Shown: positions 3,014 through 47,711 of the stretch, piece by piece
Layout of the letters: each line of letters begins with the position of its first letter
Numbering within the stretch: position 1 is the first letter of the stretch
Assembly: GCA_964453075.1 (NCBI GenBank)
Contig: CAYVNM010000006.1
Span: 1 to 51,911, forward strand
Direction: 5' to 3'
Length of the DNA: 51,911 bases
DNA from: an uncultured Candidatus Saccharibacteria bacterium
GTDB lineage: Bacteria > Patescibacteriota > Minisyncoccia > Phycocordibacterales > DATDWN01
The notes under the pieces: model-generated
Told to the model about the DNA's origin: nothing
The model's input: the letters and a program-made list of their open reading frames with translations, nothing else
The model's database searches: none
Translations under genes and position numbers: made by a program

Positions 3014-4186
3014 ATGAAAATAAACAAAAACAAAAAAAGAATATTTTTAGATTATGCGTCCATTACACCAATAGATAAAAGGGTGAAAGACAAAATGGAC
3101 CAGATTCAGAAATCTACTTTTGCGAACCCTTCTGCACTGTATGGGGAGGCCATGGTTGCCAAAGAGATTATGTTACGAGCTAGGGAAAATATAGCTCAAA
3201 TTTTACATACTCAAAGTAAAGAAATCATTTTCACGAGTGGTGGTACAGAGGGGAACAACCTGGCTATTCTGGGTGTTTTTCAAAAAAATAAAACAAAAAA
3301 TTTCACACCTCATTTTATTACGGTCTCCACTGAACATCCGGCAATCCTGGAGGTTTTCAAAGAGGTAGAGCGTAGGGGTGGGGAAGTAACAGTACTTCCA
3401 GTGGATGAGGATGGATTATTATCGCTTCAGGACCTCAGACAATCTTTAAAGAAAAATACAGTTCTCGTCAGTGTGTCCTATGCAAATAATGAAATAGGTA
3501 CGATACAACCTATACACAGTATCGCTAGAATCATAAAGGATTTCAGATTAAAAAATAATACAGTTTTTCCTTATTTACATACAGATGCTTGTCAGGCCGG
3601 GTTGTATTTATCCTTGGATGTATTGAAGCTTGGTGTGGACATGATGACTTTGGATGGTATAAAAATATACGGACCTAGAGGAAGTGGAATATTGTATGTC
3701 AAAAACAATGTAGAGATGGACCCTGTATTTTTTGGTGGTGGTCAGGAGAGAGGACTGCGAAGTGGGACAGAAAATGTAGCTAATATATCTGGTTTATCAT
3801 TGGCGTTTGAAATCGCTAACAAAATGCGTGATAAGGAGACTTTGAGACTAGGCAAAATACAGGATTATGCTATTGATAAGATATTAAATCTTTTTCCGAA
3901 ATCATCATTGAACGGTTCAAGAAAATACAGATTACCTAATAATGTAAATATTTGTTTTGATGGTCTAGATGCAGAATTTGCAGTAATTTCTTTAGACGTT
4001 GCAGGAATCTCAGCATCATACTCTTCTTCTTGTAGGACTTTGAAAGAGGATTCATCTTCATATGTGGTAGAAAGTTTGGGTAAGGAGGGTTGTGGTAAAT
4101 CTAGCCTACGTTTTACTTTCGGCAGAGAAACAAAAAAAAGTGATATAGATTTTTTGATTACTTCTCTAAAAAGGATTATGTTATAA
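3014..4186 (+). CDS. cysteine desulfurase (class V aminotransferase, NifS/IscS-like)
   Basis: FTSGGTEGNN, HTDACQA, PLP-lysine context LDGIKIYGPRGSG, LRSGTENV, C-terminal Cys loop. Confidence 0.85.
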   Translation: MKINKNKKRIFLDYASITPIDKRVKDKMDQIQKSTFANPSALYGEAMVAKEIMLRARENIAQILHTQSKEIIFTSGGTEGNNLAILGVFQKNKTKNFTPHFITVSTEHPAILEVFKEVERRGGEVTVLPVDEDGLLSLQDLRQSLKKNTVLVSVSYANNEIGTIQPIHSIARIIKDFRLKNNTVFPYLHTDACQAGLYLSLDVLKLGVDMMTLDGIKIYGPRGSGILYVKNNVEMDPVFFGGGQERGLRSGTENVANISGLSLAFEIANKMRDKETLRLGKIQDYAIDKILNLFPKSSLNGSRKYRLPNNVNICFDGLDAEFAVISLDVAGISASYSSSCRTLKEDSSSYVVESLGKEGCGKSSLRFTFGRETKKSDIDFLITSLKRIML

Positions 4187-4195
4187 TAAACAAAT

Positions 4196-5020
4196 ATGGA
4201 GGATTTAAATAAAAATCAAATAGTTTTGTTAACTCTGCTCGTGAGTTTTGTGACTTCTATTGCTACTGGAATAATGACTACTTCTCTTTTGCAAGAAGCT
4301 CCGGTTGAGGTAACTAGGAATATAAATAGAATTGTAGAGAAAACAATAGAAACAGTTACTACTCCATCTGTCACCACATCGGGAGAAAAAGAAGTAACTA
4401 CCATTATCGTAAAGGAAGACGATATGATTGTTAGTTCAATAGACAAAAATGTAAAAAGTGTAGTGAGGATCAATGAGACCAATTCAGTTTCTCAGATAAA
4501 AACTTTTTATGGTATGGGGCTTGTTATAAATAAAGACGGCCTCATAATTGCAGACAGGAAAACAATTTCCAGCTTAATCAATTATTCTGCTGTCTTGAAC
4601 GACGGAAAAGAAGTTTCTCTCCTACCACAGGGTGTAGATAAACAAACAGATTTTATTTTATTCAAAATAATACCAGCAAACAATTCGACAGTAGCTTCAT
4701 ACGGTCTTACTCCTGCAGTGCTAAGTAGTGGAGAGGTAAAACTTGGTCAAACCTTGGCTAGTTTGGGAGGACAAGAAAGTAATTCAGTATCTGTGGGCAG
4801 AGTTATATCTTTAGATACAAAAGAATCTGGTACAGGTACATCGACTGTAAAGTATATATCAAGCATCAACACAGATATGGTTTCAAGTAATTTAGAGAAC
4901 GGTAGTCCATTGTTCAATCTATCAGGTGAAATCGTGGGGATACAGTTATCAAATAATTCTTCAAAATCATTTACTCCAGTATCCGTTTTAAAAAAGGATT
5001 TGAGCGTTTTACAGAACTAA
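4196..5020 (+). CDS. membrane-anchored trypsin-like (S1C/HtrA-like) peptidase-domain protein
   Basis: N-terminal TM helix, then a chymotrypsin-fold-like pattern (GMGLVINKDGLIIAD.., TDFILFKI, ..NGSPLFNLSGEIVGI). Catalytic residues not verified. Confidence 0.5.
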   Translation: MEDLNKNQIVLLTLLVSFVTSIATGIMTTSLLQEAPVEVTRNINRIVEKTIETVTTPSVTTSGEKEVTTIIVKEDDMIVSSIDKNVKSVVRINETNSVSQIKTFYGMGLVINKDGLIIADRKTISSLINYSAVLNDGKEVSLLPQGVDKQTDFILFKIIPANNSTVASYGLTPAVLSSGEVKLGQTLASLGGQESNSVSVGRVISLDTKESGTGTSTVKYISSINTDMVSSNLENGSPLFNLSGEIVGIQLSNNSSKSFTPVSVLKKDLSVLQN

Positions 5021-9256: not shown

Positions 9257-10189
9257 TTAACTTTTAAGCAAAAAGTGCTCAACGATTTTTTCAGCTTCAC
9301 TGTAATTTTTGGGTTTTACCCACCTTATTTTTTTATCCCCGCCTGCTCCCGACCGAACGGGAGGGCGGGCAGGTCTCTTGAACCATGTCATTTGTCTTTT
9401 TGCATATCGCCATATCTCAGTTTCTAACTTTTCCAAAAATTCTTTTTTTGTTATTTTGTTTTGTAAATATAGAGCTAAGTATCTGTATTCCAAACCCAGT
9501 GCCAACATTCTTTTCCAAGACAAACCCTTTTTATGTAAATTCTGTCCTTCTTTTATCATTCCTTTTTTGACGCGCGAAATTAACCTATTATGAATTCTTT
9601 CTTTCAATTCTTCGTCAGGAATAGTTAATCCTATTTGTAGGAATTGATAATCATTTTTATTCTTTTTTATTTTTGGTACAGAACCAAGTTTGGTTGCTAT
9701 TTCAATGGCCCGGATGAGTCTAACAGGATTTTTTTTATCTATATTTTTCAAACGTTTTGGATCTAGTTTTATTAAAATGGTTTGAAGTTCAGAAAGGCTT
9801 TTCTTCTCTAGTTTTTTACGTAGTTCTTTGTTTGGAGGAACTTCTGGTAGGACAATGTCATCCACTATTGATTGTATGTAGAATCCAGTACCACCACAGA
9901 TAATTGGTAGTTTGCCACGAGCAATGATTTCTTCAATTATTCTTTTTGTGTGTTTCAACCACTCTGACACAGAGAAAATCTTTTTAGGAGAAACAACATC
10001 CAGCATATGGTGGGCAATACCCATCATTTCTTTTTTTGTGATTTTTCCTGTACCCAAGTCTAAGTCGGTGTATACCTGTCTTGAATCAGCAGAAATAACC
10101 TCGCCATTATATTTTTTAGCAACTTTTACGGCAAAATCAGATTTACCTGTGGCAGTAGGGCCAAGTATCACTAGTATTTTAGGTTTCAT
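9257..10189 (-). CDS. miaA: tRNA dimethylallyltransferase
   Basis: P-loop GPTATGKS, ADSRQVY, HHMLDV, YAKRQMTWF. Start set at MKPKILVILG because the longer ORF (to 10273) runs through tRNA-Leu(CAA). Contains an in-frame GC-rich palindromic insert at 9337-9373. Confidence 0.9.
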   Translation of the reverse strand: MKPKILVILGPTATGKSDFAVKVAKKYNGEVISADSRQVYTDLDLGTGKITKKEMMGIAHHMLDVVSPKKIFSVSEWLKHTKRIIEEIIARGKLPIICGGTGFYIQSIVDDIVLPEVPPNKELRKKLEKKSLSELQTILIKLDPKRLKNIDKKNPVRLIRAIEIATKLGSVPKIKKNKNDYQFLQIGLTIPDEELKERIHNRLISRVKKGMIKEGQNLHKKGLSWKRMLALGLEYRYLALYLQNKITKKEFLEKLETEIWRYAKRQMTWFKRPARPPVRSGAGGDKKIRWVKPKNYSEAEKIVEHFLLKS

Positions 10190-10340: not shown

Positions 10341-11384
10341 ATGACACAGTTTTACAATGATTCTGTTTTCTGGATTGATGTAGAAAAAATACACCCGAAT
10401 CCATTTCAACCTAGAAGAGAGTTCGACGAAGCACAATTACAAAGTTTGGCTGACTCCATAAGACAATACGGGGTTCTTCAGGCATTAGTTGTTACTCGCA
10501 AAGAAGTTCCAAAGGAGGATGGTGGTTTGGCTGTTGAATATGAACTCATTGCTGGTGAGAGAAGACTTCGTGCTTCCAAACTAGCTGGTCTAACACAAGT
10601 TCCAGCTTTAATAAAAGTAGGAGATGAGGAAAATGATTTAATGAAGTTGGAGCTTGCCATCATAGAAAACATTCAGCGTGAGGATTTAAATCCTGTAGAT
10701 AGGTCTAAGGCCTTTCAGAGGCTTATAGATGAATTTGGTTTTAAGCACGTTGAAATAGCAAAAAAAGTAGGGAAGAGTCGCGAGTATGTTTCAAATTCTG
10801 TTAGACTTTTATCTCTTCCTCCAGAAATTTTGGACGCTTTGTCTTTGGGTAAAATATCAGAAGGTCACGCAAGACCTCTTATGATGCTCGGTGACAGGGC
10901 GGAAGAACAGAACACTCTTTTTAAAGAAATAATGTTCAAGAAACTTACTGTACGTGAGGCCGAGGCTATAGGTCGCAGAATTGCTTATGACAAGATACGA
11001 AAGAAAGGAATTACACTAGATCCTGAAACACAAGAATTAGAAGAAAAATTAACAGAAACTCTGGGTACTCGTGTCTCGATTGAAAAAAGAGAAAATGGAG
11101 GGAAAATTTTGATAGATTATTTTTCCAATGAAGACCTTAGAGATATTCTGGAACTTATAAAAACGAACAAAGTATCTTCTCCAACAGAGAGATTAGAGAG
11201 ACATATGGCAGAAAATCCTATTCCTCCAAAAAATGACAACATTCCAGATTATGTTAGAGATCCTGACTTGGCAGAAATGACAATAGAAGATTTGAATAAC
11301 ATGGATGATAGAACTCCCGAACAACAAAAAGAAGATGAGAACAGTGAAGACGAGCTGTACTCTATAAAAAATTTCTCAGTTTAA
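10341..11384 (+). CDS. parB: ParB/Spo0J chromosome partitioning protein
   Basis: HPNPFQPRR box, ELIAGERRLRAS ParB box, HTH region, acidic C-terminal tail. Confidence 0.85.
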   Translation: MTQFYNDSVFWIDVEKIHPNPFQPRREFDEAQLQSLADSIRQYGVLQALVVTRKEVPKEDGGLAVEYELIAGERRLRASKLAGLTQVPALIKVGDEENDLMKLELAIIENIQREDLNPVDRSKAFQRLIDEFGFKHVEIAKKVGKSREYVSNSVRLLSLPPEILDALSLGKISEGHARPLMMLGDRAEEQNTLFKEIMFKKLTVREAEAIGRRIAYDKIRKKGITLDPETQELEEKLTETLGTRVSIEKRENGGKILIDYFSNEDLRDILELIKTNKVSSPTERLERHMAENPIPPKNDNIPDYVRDPDLAEMTIEDLNNMDDRTPEQQKEDENSEDELYSIKNFSV

Positions 11385-18998: not shown

Positions 18999-20207
18999 AT
19001 GAACTTTTGGCAGAAATTAAAAAAACCAATAATGGTTTTGGCTCCTATGGCGGATGTAACAGATCCGGCTTTTCGTCGCATCATCGCGAAATATGGAAAA
19101 CCAGATGTGATCTGGACAGAGTTTGTTTCGGCTGACGGACTTTTCCTTAGTCCAGTTAGAGAGTACTGCGAGAAATTAATAAAAGGTGAGATTGATAAAG
19201 AAAAGTTTTTAGAAAGTCTCTCTAATGGGATAGGTGGCGCACAGTTAATAAAAGATTTGGCTTTCAGTGAGGAGGAGAGACCTGTCGTTGCTCAATTTTT
19301 TACATCCAAACCAGAAATGATGGAGAAGGCAGCAGAGCTTGCTGTTAAACTGGGTTTTGATGGGATAGATATAAACATGGGTTGTCCTGATAAAAGTATA
19401 GAAAAGCAAAATGCTGGAGCGAAATTAATGACCAATCCAAAACTTGCTCAAGAAATAATTCTTGCAGCAAAAAGAGGAGCACAAAATTACAACACATCTC
19501 AAAACATCCAAGGGGAGTCCTTGGATGGGCGTGGGAAAGGGGGTGGGGAGAGCGAGGGGATACCAGTGTCGGTCAAGACAAGAATTGGTTGGAATAAAAA
19601 TGAGCTCGAGACATGGTTGCCTGTTTTGCTCGAGGTAAGTCCAGCGGTTATTACTGTGCATGCTCGTACTCGCAAGGAATTGTCTCTCGTTCCTGCACAA
19701 TGGGAAAATATAAAACGTGCAGTTGAAATCAGAAATAATTTTGTTGATTCAAATGGAAACAAAAGTCAGACTCTGATTTTTGGTAACGGTGATGTTAAAG
19801 ATTTAGAAGATGCAAAAAGAAAAGTAGAGGAAACTGGGTGTGATGGTGTGATGCTCGGTCGCGCTATTTTTGGTAACCCATGGCTTTTCAATCCAAGGAC
19901 TCCCCTTGGACAAGTGGGGATAGAGGAAAAACTAAAGGTAATGGTGGAGCATACAAAACTTTTTGAGGAGATTTTGTCTCACAAGAGCTTCGCTTTGATG
20001 AAGAAGCATTACAAGGCATACGTTACTGGTTGGCCTGCCCGTCACAGCCGAGGATCTCGAACGAAGGCAGGCGGTGATGGTGCAAGAGAGCTTCGCATGA
20101 AATTAATGGAAGCAAAAGATGCAGATGAGGTGGAGCTAATTGTGAATCAATATTTAAAAAACGGCCAAAAACAAGGGTTTTTCTCATTTTTAAAAAAGTA
20201 TTTTTAA
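18999..20207 (+). CDS. tRNA-dihydrouridine synthase
   Basis: LAPMADVTDPAFRR, DINMGCP, TVHARTR: Dus-family TIM-barrel pattern. Carries two GC-rich in-frame insertions (19505-19565 and 20044-20084). Confidence 0.85.
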   Translation: MNFWQKLKKPIMVLAPMADVTDPAFRRIIAKYGKPDVIWTEFVSADGLFLSPVREYCEKLIKGEIDKEKFLESLSNGIGGAQLIKDLAFSEEERPVVAQFFTSKPEMMEKAAELAVKLGFDGIDINMGCPDKSIEKQNAGAKLMTNPKLAQEIILAAKRGAQNYNTSQNIQGESLDGRGKGGGESEGIPVSVKTRIGWNKNELETWLPVLLEVSPAVITVHARTRKELSLVPAQWENIKRAVEIRNNFVDSNGNKSQTLIFGNGDVKDLEDAKRKVEETGCDGVMLGRAIFGNPWLFNPRTPLGQVGIEEKLKVMVEHTKLFEEILSHKSFALMKKHYKAYVTGWPARHSRGSRTKAGGDGARELRMKLMEAKDADEVELIVNQYLKNGQKQGFFSFLKKYF

Positions 20208-20259
20208 AATTTAGCTAAAATTACTTGACTTATTTTGTGGTAGTGGTATGATAATGAAA

Positions 20260-20640
20260 GATGACTCGACCCGCGCAAGGTTGCCCGGGCGACAACAGAC
20301 AGGCAGACGAGCCGAAAAAGGAGGTTGTGACCTACTACCCAATACGTGTTGAGGATGACAGAGGAAACTCTGCTCGAATCACACAAACCAGTTGGGCTGG
20401 TGAAATTACTAATCCTGTCTGAGTCGGGGCGGTCCCCGACAGGTGCCAGCTACCTTGAAAGGCTGGGCATATTAAAAAAAGAGAGCAAGGCGGTAAGACC
20501 TGCAAAGGTTTGAGGCGGCGGTCCGGGGGACCCACTCAAGACTTGTGGGTATACCGAAGCTCGAGGTGTGCGGAGGCGGGTCAGTGAGCCCGATGAGAAC
20601 GCACACAACAGGGGCAGAGTCAAAAAACTCTGCCCCTTTT
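20260..20640 (+). ncRNA. rnpB: probable RNase P RNA
   Basis: Blocks resembling bacterial RNase P RNA: ACAGGUGCCAGCUACCUUGAAAGGCUGGG (cf. GGGUGCCAGGUAACGCCUGGG), AGAGAGCAAGGCGGUAAGACC, CAGUGAGCCCGAUGAGAACGCACACAACAGG (cf. CAGUGAGC..GAUGAAUGAC..CACGACAGAA). Promoter TTGACT(20225). Ends in GGGGCAGAGT-caaaaaa-ACTCTGCCCC-TTTT. The ends are approximate. Confidence 0.7.
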
Positions 20641-20680
20641 CTATTTTCCAAAAAAACACCTTTTACGTTATACTGTTGGT

Positions 20681-21736
20681 ATGTCAGAGGCATTATATAG
20701 AAAATACAGGCCTAATAAATTCTCCGAAGTCTTGGGTCAGGATCATATTGTTAAAGTACTTGAGGCCGAAGTTAAGTCCGGAGAAATTTCTCACGCCTAC
20801 TTATTTGCCGGGACTCGTGGTACTGGCAAGACATCCATTGCTAGAATTTTTGCAAAAGAAATAGGAACATCTCAAAACGATATTTACGAAATAGATGCCG
20901 CTAGTAATACCAGTGTAGATGATATTCGTGCTCTGAATGAATCGGTTTTTACACTTCCTTTTGAATCAAAATACAAAGTCTATATTTTGGACGAGGTTCA
21001 CATGCTTTCCAAATCAGCATCGAACGCATTACTGAAAACACTAGAAGAACCACCAGCTCATGTTGTATTTATCTTGGCTACTACAGAAACACATAAAATC
21101 CCGGAAACAGTCTTGTCTCGTTGTGAGGTTTATACATTCAAAAAACCAAGTCAGGAAGTCTTGAAAAAAATGATTGTTTCAGTTGCTAAGAAAGAGGGCT
21201 ACACAATGGACGATGCGTCCGTAGAGCTCATCGCTATTCTAGGTGACGGTTCATTCCGCGATACACAAGGGATTATTCAAAAGGTACTTTCATACACTAA
21301 GGACCTGCCCACCCTCCCGAAGAGGGAGCAGGCGGGCAAAAAAATATCCGAGGATGAGGTGAGATTGGTCACTGGGGCGCCTGCAGTTGATCTTGTGCAC
21401 GGAGTTATTTCTGCTATAGCGGATAAGGACATAAAGACGGGTCTCTCAAGTGTCAGAAAGGCTGTTGAACAAAATATAGATATGTCTGTTTTTCAAAAAT
21501 TAATCTTGCATACTGCCAGGGCTGTGCTACTTGTGCGTTTCGGAGTAGGGGATTTGGTTCGAGATGATTTCTCCGAAAAAGAGTTTGAATTTATAAATGG
21601 TTTGGCAAAAAAGGATGGAGCTTTTTCTTCTCAAACATTGGTGGAGCTTTTGACTGCTTATGAGAGGACCACTGGGGCGTATATTCCTCAACTCCCATTA
21701 GAACTAGCTTTGGTGAACATAATAGAAAACAAATAA
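20681..21736 (+). CDS. dnaX: DNA polymerase III subunit gamma/tau (short)
   Basis: Walker A GTRGTGKTS, DEVHMLS, LSRCEVY sensor motif. 351 aa. In-frame GC-rich palindromic insert at 21304-21337. Confidence 0.9.
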   Translation: MSEALYRKYRPNKFSEVLGQDHIVKVLEAEVKSGEISHAYLFAGTRGTGKTSIARIFAKEIGTSQNDIYEIDAASNTSVDDIRALNESVFTLPFESKYKVYILDEVHMLSKSASNALLKTLEEPPAHVVFILATTETHKIPETVLSRCEVYTFKKPSQEVLKKMIVSVAKKEGYTMDDASVELIAILGDGSFRDTQGIIQKVLSYTKDLPTLPKREQAGKKISEDEVRLVTGAPAVDLVHGVISAIADKDIKTGLSSVRKAVEQNIDMSVFQKLILHTARAVLLVRFGVGDLVRDDFSEKEFEFINGLAKKDGAFSSQTLVELLTAYERTTGAYIPQLPLELALVNIIENK

Positions 21737-21882
21737 AATTCCCAAAACCCGTCAACCTGGCAGGTTGACGGGTAGGGGTGGGTTTTCAACAGATTAGCAC
21801 TTGACACAAGTGCTTTTTTAGTATAATATATATAGCAGATTGTCAAGTCCGTTTCGGAGTCGGCTTACCCAGGGAGGTTCCC

Positions 21883-22053
21883 GTGCGCGCAACTCTACTG
21901 GCTTTGGCCACGGTGGTGCCAATTCGGCAGGCGCTTCTCTCGTGGTTTGGCAAAGATCTAGGTCTTTGGGCACTCGTGCTCTTCGGTGTCGTGGCGCTGT
22001 TCGTCAGCTATCGCATCAACCGGCGGAGGAACCCTCCTTCGTCAGCACTCTGA
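21883..22053 (+). CDS. hypothetical 56-aa hydrophobic protein (GC-rich cassette C4; GTG start)
   Basis: Not in the track. TTGACA(21801) with a TATAAT-like box. GGGAGG 5 nt before GTG 21883. Product MRATLLALATVVPIRQALLSWFGKDLGLWALVLFGVVALFVSYRINRRRNPPSSAL. Terminator CGCCGTTCGGT-ctagc-ACCGGACGGCG-TTTTCGTTTTT (22075-22112). Confidence 0.45.
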   Translation: MRATLLALATVVPIRQALLSWFGKDLGLWALVLFGVVALFVSYRINRRRNPPSSAL

Positions 22054-22168
22054 CCCAGGGTCAGTCGTCTCCAGCGCCGTTCGGTCTAGCACCGGACGGC
22101 GTTTTCGTTTTTATCTGGGGTGGTAAAAAATAAAAAAAAGTGTAATATGTAGAATGTTTACTAAACAT

Positions 22169-22215
22169 TGGGAGATCGTCTAGGATTAGAGGCCTTGAGC
22201 CTTTAGAGGGGTGAG
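22169..22215 (+). pseudogene. degraded 5' fragment of tRNA-Gln
   Basis: TGGGAGATCGTCTA is identical to the first 14 nt of tRNA-Gln at 22505. The rest aligns with deletions in the D loop and anticodon loop (GAGGC CTTGA GCCTT). There is no T arm or 3' acceptor strand. Confidence 0.55.
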
Positions 22216-22504
22216 CTCGGGATGGGACCCGAGCGCAAGACCTTCTTCAGATATTTTATGAGCACAGCGAAATAAAATATCGAAAAGGTGTACTGCTCCT
22301 GTAAGGAGAGATAGGTATGGAGCGCAAGACCGGAGTCTGTCGAGATGAGGTGAGAAGTGATATTATCACTTCGCAAGACCTTGAACATTTTGTTATCAAA
22401 ATGTGAAAGGTGTACAGTTCTTGTAAAGAAGGGTCGCGAAAATTTTCTCCAGAAAATTATTTGTGACCGATTCCCGTTCATTAAAATTTGTTTGTTTCTA
22501 AAGC
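22216..22504 (+). repeat. structured repeat region between pseudo-tRNA-Gln and tRNA-Gln
   Basis: Three (G/T)CGCAAGACC boxes (22233, 22322, 22371). Two GAAAGGTGTAC boxes, each followed by a GTAA-loop hairpin (CTCCTgtaAGGAG / TTCTTgtaAAGAA). Several AT-rich hairpins. Confidence 0.4.
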
Positions 22505-42044: not shown

Positions 42045-42316
42045 TAGAGGTGGTGGCGCTCCTGAGAGATCGAGAAAGTCGACGAGACGAGAAGCAAAAC
42101 CGCAAAACCGCAAAACCGCAAAACCGCAAAACCGCAAAACCGCAAAACCGAAAAAGTAAAAGCTGACGAGAAGCAACTCTCGGGTACGATGCGCTGCCAC
42201 CTCAGTTCCTTGATTCTGATCCCCCGAGTCACTCGGTCTAGGGGGCCTGCCGCAAGGTGGGTTACTACCGGGTTCATCTGGGCGGGGTTCGTAGCTGCAG
42301 CTACACCCCGCCTTTT
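42045..42316 (+). ncRNA. unclassified ncRNA with 7 tandem CAAAACCG units
   Basis: Promoter TTGACT(42010)-17 nt-TATAAT(42033). Helix GAGGTGGTGGCGC(42047)/GCGCTGCCACCTC(42191) and helix CCTGAGAG/CTCTCGGG, both with G-U pairs possible only on the + strand. 7 x CAAAACCG lie at 42095-42150 in the enclosed loop. A second domain ends in the terminator GGCGGGGTtcGTAGCTGCAGCTACACCCCGCC-TTTT. Confidence 0.6.
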
Positions 42317-44394: not shown

Positions 44395-44442
44395 AAAATT
44401 AGCGTGGGTCGCAACGACCCACGCCAGCGCTCGAGGCTCTCT

Positions 44443-47637: not shown

Positions 47638-47711
47638 TTAAAGAGAATTAATTTTTAAAATGGAAATGGGCGCCGAGGGTTAGTCGGCGCCCGGGGTGGG
47701 TGTACTGTTGA

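Follow-up and report, generated by a model that had tools for sequence, protein, structure and literature searches.

Repetitive extragenic palindromic (REP) sequences tagged with GTAG or CGTC occur inside genes of Opitutus terrae, Rickettsia (RPE-4, RPE-6) and other bacteria, and repeats of this kind are also reported in the Planctomycetes-Verrucomicrobia-Chlamydiae (PVC) group. They often lie in replication and repair, tRNA-synthetase and tRNA-modification genes, and some that are contained entirely in an ORF add 10-30 residues (Di Nocera et al. 2013, PMC3733652). Here we describe a 33-nt GC-rich segment inside dnaX, the gene for DNA polymerase III gamma/tau, on contig CAYVNM010000006.1 of an uncultured Candidatus Saccharibacteria bacterium (51,911 nt, the whole of which we call the window). 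We consider it, with a probability of about three in four, to belong to a repeated DNA element that is short, rich in GC and able to form a hairpin, either of the REP type or of the type of the Rickettsia palindromic elements (RPEs). We refer to its relatives, all of which begin with CCTG, as the CCTG family.

The new family shares several traits with intragenic REPs. Both are imperfect palindromes of 20-40 bp with a conserved tetranucleotide at one end, both are found as singles, dimers and clusters, and comparable host genes are affected, here dnaX, miaA, Dus, IleRS and an AddA/UvrD-type helicase. However, the CCTG family carries a CCTG tag instead of GTAG or CGTC, and its 12-bp stem is bipartite with a CA bulge. 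Its copy number per genome is low, unlike that of REPs, and the copies in low-GC loci are divided between 33 coding and 39 non-coding positions. In genomes of the candidate phyla radiation (CPR) most copies seen are intragenic, and near-identical copies occur across phyla. A REPtron, that is, a gene for a REP-associated tyrosine transposase (RAYT) flanked by CCTG repeats, was not found in the fetched loci. In general, the family works like intragenic REPs but lacks the tag and the high extragenic copy number that, together with the REPtron, define REPs.

The Rickettsia elements are similar in that in-frame palindromic repeats sit in essential genes of a small AT-rich genome and orthologues without the insert exist (here for dnaX, Dus and miaA). 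Like the present inserts, they are described as being translated and tolerated on the protein surface, with differences from one relative to another (Ogata et al. 2000, as summarised in PMC3733652). By its description, RPE-1 is about 100-150 bp long and confined to Rickettsia, whereas the CCTG element is 33-42 bp, GC-rich and present in many phyla.

Yeast mitochondria contain GC clusters, which are GC-rich palindromes of 30-50 bp in a very AT-rich genome, optional between strains and sometimes located within coding regions or within one another; the byps of Magnusiomyces are bypassed derivatives of them. The CCTG copies are likewise short GC-rich palindromes, optional between strains and sometimes coding or nested. 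They differ from this organelle system in that byps break the frame and the ribosome skips them, while CCTG copies keep the frame, which points to ordinary translation. Insertion sequences (IS) of the IS200/IS605 family and their miniature derivatives, the palindrome-associated transposable elements (PATEs), which Y1 HUH transposases move, also invite comparison: they are recognised as hairpins, make no target duplication, use a short target and show strand bias, and Y1_Tnp genes stand beside two CCTG copies. Yet those elements, at least 100 bp long, have two different subterminal hairpins, one per end, whereas the CCTG element is a single hairpin. We know of no enzyme cognate to it.

Insertion of the element into dnaX

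The dnaX gene (20681..21736, + strand) was recognised by its homologues and Pfam domains and encodes 351 aa. The element was read directly in this open reading frame (ORF) at 21304..21336 (+ strand) as CCTGCCCACCCTCCCGAAGAGGGAGCAGGCGGG, flanked by GSFRDTQGIIQKVLSYTKD and KKISEDEVRLVTGAP. A first-pass annotation had already noticed an in-frame palindromic element here, and did so correctly except for its end, which it placed one base too far, at 21337. The 33-mer occurs once in the window, on the + strand, and the number of chance matches expected from shuffles is 0. Its GC content is about 70-80%, against 38% for the window.

According to the family alignment, the left arm, CCTGCCCACCCTCCCG (21304..21319, + strand), comprises the 5′ CCTG tag and the 5′ strands of the outer and inner stems. 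The right arm, GGGAGCAGGCGGG (21324..21336, + strand), comprises the 3′ strand of the inner stem, the CA bulge and the 3′ strand of the outer stem, and it is identical in the miaA copy described below and in all 56 aligned family members. The whole is an imperfect palindrome. As RNA with its flanks it is predicted to fold at -21.2 kcal/mol (z = -4.05); as bare DNA it gives a weak hairpin (-7.2 kcal/mol, z = -1.1), because an A at position 8, where the family usually has G, breaks the outer stem of the canonical copies. The covariance model of the family scores this copy at 46.3 bits, although the copy was in the training set.

The element starts at codon position 3, with its first base completing the Asp208 codon. 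The codons across it (the caret marks the insertion point here and below) are GA^C CTG CCC ACC CTC CCG AAG AGG GAG CAG GCG GG^C, which gives LPTLPKREQAG at residues 209-219, followed by KKISEDEV, in the peptide stretch ...SYTKDLPTLPKREQAGKKISE... Since the element is 33 nt, or 11 codons, the reading frame of dnaX is kept.

Comparison with relatives revealed alleles without the segment. The best 120 DnaX homologues come from Paceibacteria/Zambryskibacteria, within the CPR, and the host is likewise a Paceibacteria/Zambryskibacteria-like CPR bacterium. Their common state at the site is ...SYSKD-KKISEEEV...; LPTLPKREQAG is limited to the window and to homologue P0001 (99% identical). An exact-protein lookup with the DnaX of the window found no match. 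Loci L001-L003 (94% amino acid and about 90% nucleotide identity) read AAGGA^TAAGAAG, with exactly 33 nt absent, and loci L004 and L005 (about 91% identical) have an element identical to that of the window. The insert is also present in DNA contigs of four samples, one of them about 6.5% diverged, and the identical GC-rich element recurs in contigs of runs X2, X5 and X6. Relatives that encode the same peptide by AT-rich, non-palindromic codons were not seen; they carry either the identical GC-rich element or none.

These empty alleles with their clean 33-nt gap show that the dnaX segment arrived as inserted DNA behind the second base of codon Asp208, and that the target was neither duplicated nor deleted. 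The event is recent in evolutionary terms, and lineages 6-10% apart in DNA are polymorphic for it.

For a short, palindromic and compositionally foreign stretch, an artefact of assembly or library preparation comes to mind, for instance a chimeric join or an adaptor with a hairpin, but we give this possibility practically no credence. The same site is occupied, in frame, in independently made assemblies of other samples and studies, namely assembly GCA_964507615.1 and Logan contigs of X1, X2, X5 and X6 (wastewater, soil, activated sludge), and many projects, using many assemblers, have yielded copies of the family.

In three wastewater metatranscriptome runs, contigs with about 93% identity to the window skip exactly 21304-21336. 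Magnusiomyces mitochondria bypass GC-rich hairpin inserts in an AT-rich genome, and a skip of exactly 33 nt in contigs derived from RNA is what would be expected if the insert went untranslated, either removed from the RNA as a tiny intron or skipped by the ribosome like the yeast mitochondrial 'byp' elements. We regard this as very unlikely. The skipping contigs differ at about 6% of flanking positions, as would a related lineage such as L001-L003, so the skip appears, from sequence divergence, to mark an empty allele of that lineage and not RNA processing; splicing of the element from RNA was rejected for this reason. Furthermore, a contig from an RNA run (X13, with loose ends at 21303 and 21335) holds the element inside another AT-rich sequence, and the in-frame, stop-free state of nearly all intragenic family copies (see below) would be needless if they were removed or bypassed. 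As 33 nt without a stop codon, the dnaX element would simply be translated into 11 extra, tolerated residues.

Around 20034-20195 and 21299-21811, the similarity between the window and L004 is a mosaic, with about 88-92% identity in some stretches and 98-100% in others. The near-identical tract at 21299-21811 begins at the left edge of the dnaX element, and another tract border coincides with the element in the Dus gene. This suggests recombination tracts that stopped at indel heterology, which would explain both borders. Such inserts may serve as a fine-scale marker of strain history and recombination.

Place of the insert in the DnaX protein

An AlphaFold model of DnaX built with 50 homologues reached a mean pLDDT (predicted local distance difference test) of 84.6. 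Residues 211-220 form its lowest internal block (pLDDT 54), and no regular structure is predicted between the helix at 192-208 and residue 222. In the model, the insert therefore sits in a surface loop that joins the sensor-2 helix (192-208) to the start of domain III.

This loop is a hotspot. Inserts of 5-23 residues occur in 26 of the 120 homologues, at five alignment positions (after window residues 206, 207, 208, 220 and 221). Residues 307-312 form another, minor hotspot. Unrelated hairpin inserts occupy the same loop in 24 of the other 118 homologues. The DNA of three of them (L065, L066 and L067) forms hairpins that are unrelated in sequence, and one looks nested. It follows from these unrelated inserts that several families of translated hairpin inserts exist in Paceibacteria. 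For DnaX itself the insert probably has no function.

The other inserts in the loop come from homologues P0004-P0118 and from about 10600-10700 of loci L065, L066 and L067. One of them is QPLKASGGRMT (CAACCGCTGGAAGCGAGCAGTGGTCGCATGACC); a longer form contains a 12-bp inverted repeat, GGTCATACGACC...GGTCGTATGACC. Another is PSTRAELSTGHS (CCCAGTACTAGAGCAGAGCTCAGTACGGGG).

Sister copies in miaA and Dus

Approximate matching of the whole 33-mer in the window returned only the element itself, as the loop lengths of the copies differ, and the family was also missed by a generic repeat finder. With regular expressions for each arm and a covariance model in their place, the window holds 3 copies in 52 kb, all of them intragenic.

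A canonical copy of 36 nt, CCTGCCCGCCCTCCCGTTCGGTCGGGAGCAGGCGGG, lies in miaA (9338..9373, - strand; 62.9 bits in the covariance model). As the first-pass annotation had proposed, it matches the dnaX copy at most positions: the left arms share 15 of 16 bases and the right arms 13 of 13. It had also stated that the two copies are read in different frames, and this proved right, with codon position 3 in dnaX and codon position 1 in miaA. Because the frames differ, almost identical arms yield unrelated peptides, LPTLPKREQAG in dnaX and PARPPVRSGAGG in miaA. Exactly these 12 residues are absent from a MiaA homologue of 58% identity in L116, which reads TWFKR^D.

The copy in the Dus gene (20034..20075, + strand) is 42 nt long, CCTGCCCGTCAC...GGCAGGCGGT, and translated as PARHSRGSRTKAGG, again in a frame different from that of the dnaX copy. 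Only its termini, CCTGCCCG...GCAGGCGG, match the family (10 bits, E = 1.3). The dnaX element had been counted as the third copy in the window; the Dus copy does exist, but it is a diverged subfamily member that shares no more than these ends. It is missing in L001 and L004, with the unambiguous borders TTGG^GATGG and no target duplication. The miaA and Dus copies are thus also clean insertions.

It could still be argued that these segments are a lineage-specific protein feature, for instance a Pro/Gly/Arg-rich linker, and that the likeness to miaA and Dus reflects a peptide motif or compositional convergence. The inserted peptides are indeed all rich in Pro, Ala, Gly and Arg and lie in loops. 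Nevertheless, nearly identical DNA encodes different peptides, five frames and both strands are used across the family, identical DNA appears in non-coding contexts, and the GC content of the copies is far from that of the genome. Together these points make a shared protein feature so improbable that we prefer, as the annotation did, the insertion of DNA, and its frame argument extends to the whole family.

The Dus gene has further peculiarities. A second optional insert of 72 nt (19489-19560), present in the window and L001 and absent from L004, consists of a 6-bp hairpin, CCAAGGggagtCCTTGG, followed by the G-rich run GGGCGTGGGAAAGGGGGTGGGGAGAGCGAGGGG. Similar G-rich GGTGAGGGG motifs flank CCTG elements in metagenome loci L081, L129, L132 and L183. 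At about 19150-19245 the window has an AT-rich segment of its own in place of about 16-18 nt in relatives. Owing to this segment and the two GC-rich inserts, Dus has 402 aa, compared with 321-350 aa in close relatives.

A multi-phylum family of CCTG hairpins

The element is not private to this genome but a member of a multi-phylum family. In the first scan, an exact pattern of 26 fixed bases derived from two canonical copies was searched in one-genome-per-species data (596 Gb). It matched 59 places, against about 0.003 expected, in loci of 30-71% GC. Genome copies belong to Patescibacteria, Lentisphaerae, Kiritimatiellia, Verrucomicrobiota, Planctomycetes, Omnitrophota, Marinimicrobia and Acidobacteria. 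The base 3′ of the pattern is an invariant G in all copies, although the pattern did not demand it.

In the second scan, in metagenomes, the ends alone were fixed, which gave at least 120 loci with several subfamilies that are alike at the ends and different inside. The subfamily CTCACGATRGTTCGGG is very common in low-GC contigs. In general, copies are roughly 32-42 nt long and follow the consensus R^CCTG CCCGCC CTCCCG nTGGT CGGGAG CA GGCGGG^G(A), in which the inner hairpin is variable. All begin with CCTG, so that the opposite strand ends in CAGG-3′. The fold of canonical copies consists of a 4-nt tail and a 12-bp stem with the CA bulge, with predicted DNA energies of -13 to -14 kcal/mol (z about -3.2 to -3.6).

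The inner stem shows compensatory variants (CTCCCG/CGGGAG, CTCCTG/CAGGAG and CTCGAG/CTCGAG), and 81% of 64 distinct interiors can pair with themselves. Precise head-to-tail dimers were found in L120 and L125.

The element had no real match in viral contigs, phage records or plasmid records. Neither it nor the larger repeat around the PVC copies matched Rfam 15 at the gathering threshold or at E <= 5. Literature searches with the element sequence returned irrelevant matches only, and in topical searches we found no description of the family in CPR. This family of hairpin elements is apparently undescribed so far.

Three known types of repeat were considered and rejected. The copies are not CRISPR repeats, as they are single, and the only arrays are abutting dimers or the 80-nt units of L055, in which the 'spacers' are identical and tRNA-derived. 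They are not terminal inverted repeats of a full-length IS, for 1.25 Mb of loci contained neither solo halves nor long versions. A miniature inverted-repeat transposable element has terminal inverted repeats, is about 50-500 bp long and duplicates its target, whereas these copies measure only 32-42 bp and show no duplication.

Distant phyla have the same 35-nt sequence, which points either to horizontal movement, for which IS66-type elements are a possible carrier, or to an enzyme common to these phyla that recognises it. With this family, the REP/RPE concept gains a further tag and further hosts.

Coding copies keep the reading frame

In low-GC loci, the length of the element is divisible by 3 (33, 36, 39 or 42 nt) in 32 of the 33 copies well inside long ORFs, all 32 being stop-free; the sole exception is in a spurious ORF. 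Among clearly non-coding copies the fraction is 20/39, and outside genes the canonical subfamily is most often 35 nt long. This contrast in frame-keeping lengths suggests that intragenic copies are translated and filtered by selection. They use five of the six frames, with a sense to antisense ratio of 25:8. Host genes include the essential ones for IleRS, RpoB, SecA, trigger factor, MurE/F and MraW, and also genes for an AddA/UvrD-type helicase and class II aminoacyl-tRNA synthetases.

CPR genomes are tiny, gene-dense and usually called streamlined; nonetheless, selfish hairpin DNA appears to enter their most essential genes and to be translated. Here these are the genes of the clamp loader and of tRNA-modification enzymes, and in relatives those of IleRS, RpoB and SecA. 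Translated inserts would be a steady source of new loops and length variation, and they can mislead annotation and alignment.

Orthologous copies allow the arms to be compared with their surroundings. In L043 and L054 the flanks are 73-76% identical, while 28 of 29 arm bases agree and 3 of the 7 loop positions differ. In L063, L025 and L010 the flanks are 58-68% identical and the arms are identical. A covariance-model search of 478 kb found no half-decayed copies. The conservation of the arms could mean selection, gene conversion or repeated insertion at hotspots; in part it is ascertainment, since both partners were found with a pattern that requires intact arms.

The same observations raise the question of whether the hairpin is kept for a role as nucleic acid, either as a protein-binding DNA site or as an RNA structure that acts in mRNA stability, in pausing of RNA polymerase or the ribosome, or in co-translational folding. 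Arms held while flanks diverge, compensatory stem changes, the lack of half-decayed copies and the position of the insert exactly at a domain boundary of DnaX would all fit such a role. Still, presence is polymorphic in close relatives, most orthologues are without the element, and host genes, positions, strands and frames are heterogeneous. Copies also occur in pseudo-tRNA fragments, at IS66 junctions and in the loops of other repeats, the test is biased because the conserved pairs come from the pattern that demands intact arms, and the dnaX copy itself has a weakened stem. We therefore consider a nucleic-acid role improbable and favour a repeated DNA element of the REP/RPE type.

Target sites and possible movement

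At position -1, 92 of 102 copies have a purine, and positions +2/+3 are A-rich. The empty sites read TGG^GAT (Dus), AGA^GAT (miaA) and GGA^(C/T)AA (dnaX), and the target looks like R^GA(A/T). No target duplication was seen: the two flanks agree over 2 nt in 13/102 copies, over 3 nt in 4/102 and over 4 nt in 0/102. Copies frequently sit inside the loops of other hairpins, for example in a repeat of the PVC group, in one of Verrucomicrobia, in a CGTC-type REP and in the D- and T-loops of tRNA-like fragments.

Only two Y1_Tnp genes were present in 1.25 Mb of fetched loci (Pfam matches in L120, E = 4e-33, and L179, E = 1.7e-7), each within 100 nt of a CCTG copy. It is a tentative suggestion that the copies spread in the form of hairpins of single-stranded DNA, on which an HUH/Y1 transposase of the IS200/RAYT-like kind would act in trans. 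Such an enzyme would recognise the basal stem with its CA bulge together with the 5′ CCTG tetranucleotide and would insert the hairpin beside a short target that reads R^GA(A/T) on the top strand and (A/T)TC^ on the bottom strand, with the loops of other hairpins as favoured sites. The absence of target duplication, the target and sense biases, the dimers, the nesting in loops and the Y1_Tnp neighbours would fit this mode of movement.

Several points weigh against a mobile element of the REP type. The tag is CCTG and not the GTAG cleaved by RAYTs (PMC3733652). The strict pattern finds 1-5 copies per species genome, a low number unlike that of classical REPs, and agreement with the target consensus is only partial for the dnaX site, A^CAA. 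No transposase is tied to the element, and the window contains none. Both of the Y1 genes nearby have flanking hairpins of their own that differ from the element, GCAGCAAGCTGC and, in L179, GGTCACCAACCAGTTGGTGACC, so their adjacency to CCTG copies may reflect only a taste for REP-rich DNA. The apparent constancy of the sequence is partly ascertainment, because the search patterns fixed the arms. Translation of the element, finally, is suggested by frame statistics.

A bolder and rather doubtful proposal is that the family represents a hitherto unrecognised, minimal class of mobile DNA in which a single 35-nt hairpin is the whole element. It would move between CPR, PVC, Omnitrophota, Marinimicrobia and Acidobacteria, its sequence would be kept by a widely shared enzyme or host factor, and it would routinely colonise essential genes of ultra-small bacteria, adding surface loops. 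The mover could be non-RAYT. In any case, the family offers a tractable test case for the movement of single-hairpin repeats.

Clustering of neighbouring genes gave mostly housekeeping synteny, plus one recurrent junction. In L020, L021, L068, L071 and L160, which belong to Acidobacteria, Victivallales and three metagenome contigs, a copy lies at the junction of a DruA-like (PF14236) ORF and an IS66-family transposase gene. This junction is a possible vehicle for spread between phyla.

Locus L179 (3290-3315, 4027-4050 and 4075-4100) has a RAYT-like Y1 gene flanked by GGTCACCAACCAGTTGGTGACC palindromes, with CGTC-type REPs (CGTCACGAA...TTCGTGACG) beside it. This arrangement is REPtron-like, and the CCTG element is in the loop of one of the REPs.

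Two arrangements associate the element with tRNA genes. In L063 (560-945; also in L010, L025, L107 and L166), the 5′ half of a tRNA with a CCTG element in its D-loop is followed by an 80-aa GIY-YIG ORF and then by the intact tRNA. This conserved order has the look of a small GIY-YIG cassette that entered a tRNA gene, the 5′ part of the tRNA being duplicated. The GIY-YIG gene was considered as a mover and rejected, being a single conserved locus with no general association. In L055 of Neomarinimicrobiota (4090-4413), three tandem 80-nt units adjoin an intact tRNA, and each unit is the 3′ fragment of a tRNA whose T-loop contains the inserted element (GGTTC^GAGTCC).

Other features of the window

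GC-rich non-coding stretches lie on either side of dnaX (20208-20680 and about 21840-22240), and spurious ORFs were called across both. The upstream stretch is conserved with L004, and part of the downstream one (about 21870-22046) is poorly conserved. For neither did Rfam give a match, even at E <= 5. Possibly they encode structured RNAs that are not annotated; the signal recognition particle RNA gene often neighbours dnaX.

An intergenic tandem repeat at 42086-42163 consists of about 9 copies of the 8-nt unit GCAAAACC. Strong GC-rich hairpins are found just 3′ of genes at 21746-21771 (CCGTCAACCTGgcAGGTTGACGG, after dnaX), 44402-44424 (GCGTGGGTCGcaaCGACCCACGC) and 47668-47692 (GGGCGCCGAgggttagTCGGCGCCC). 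None of these is related to the CCTG family; they could be terminators or members of other repeat families.

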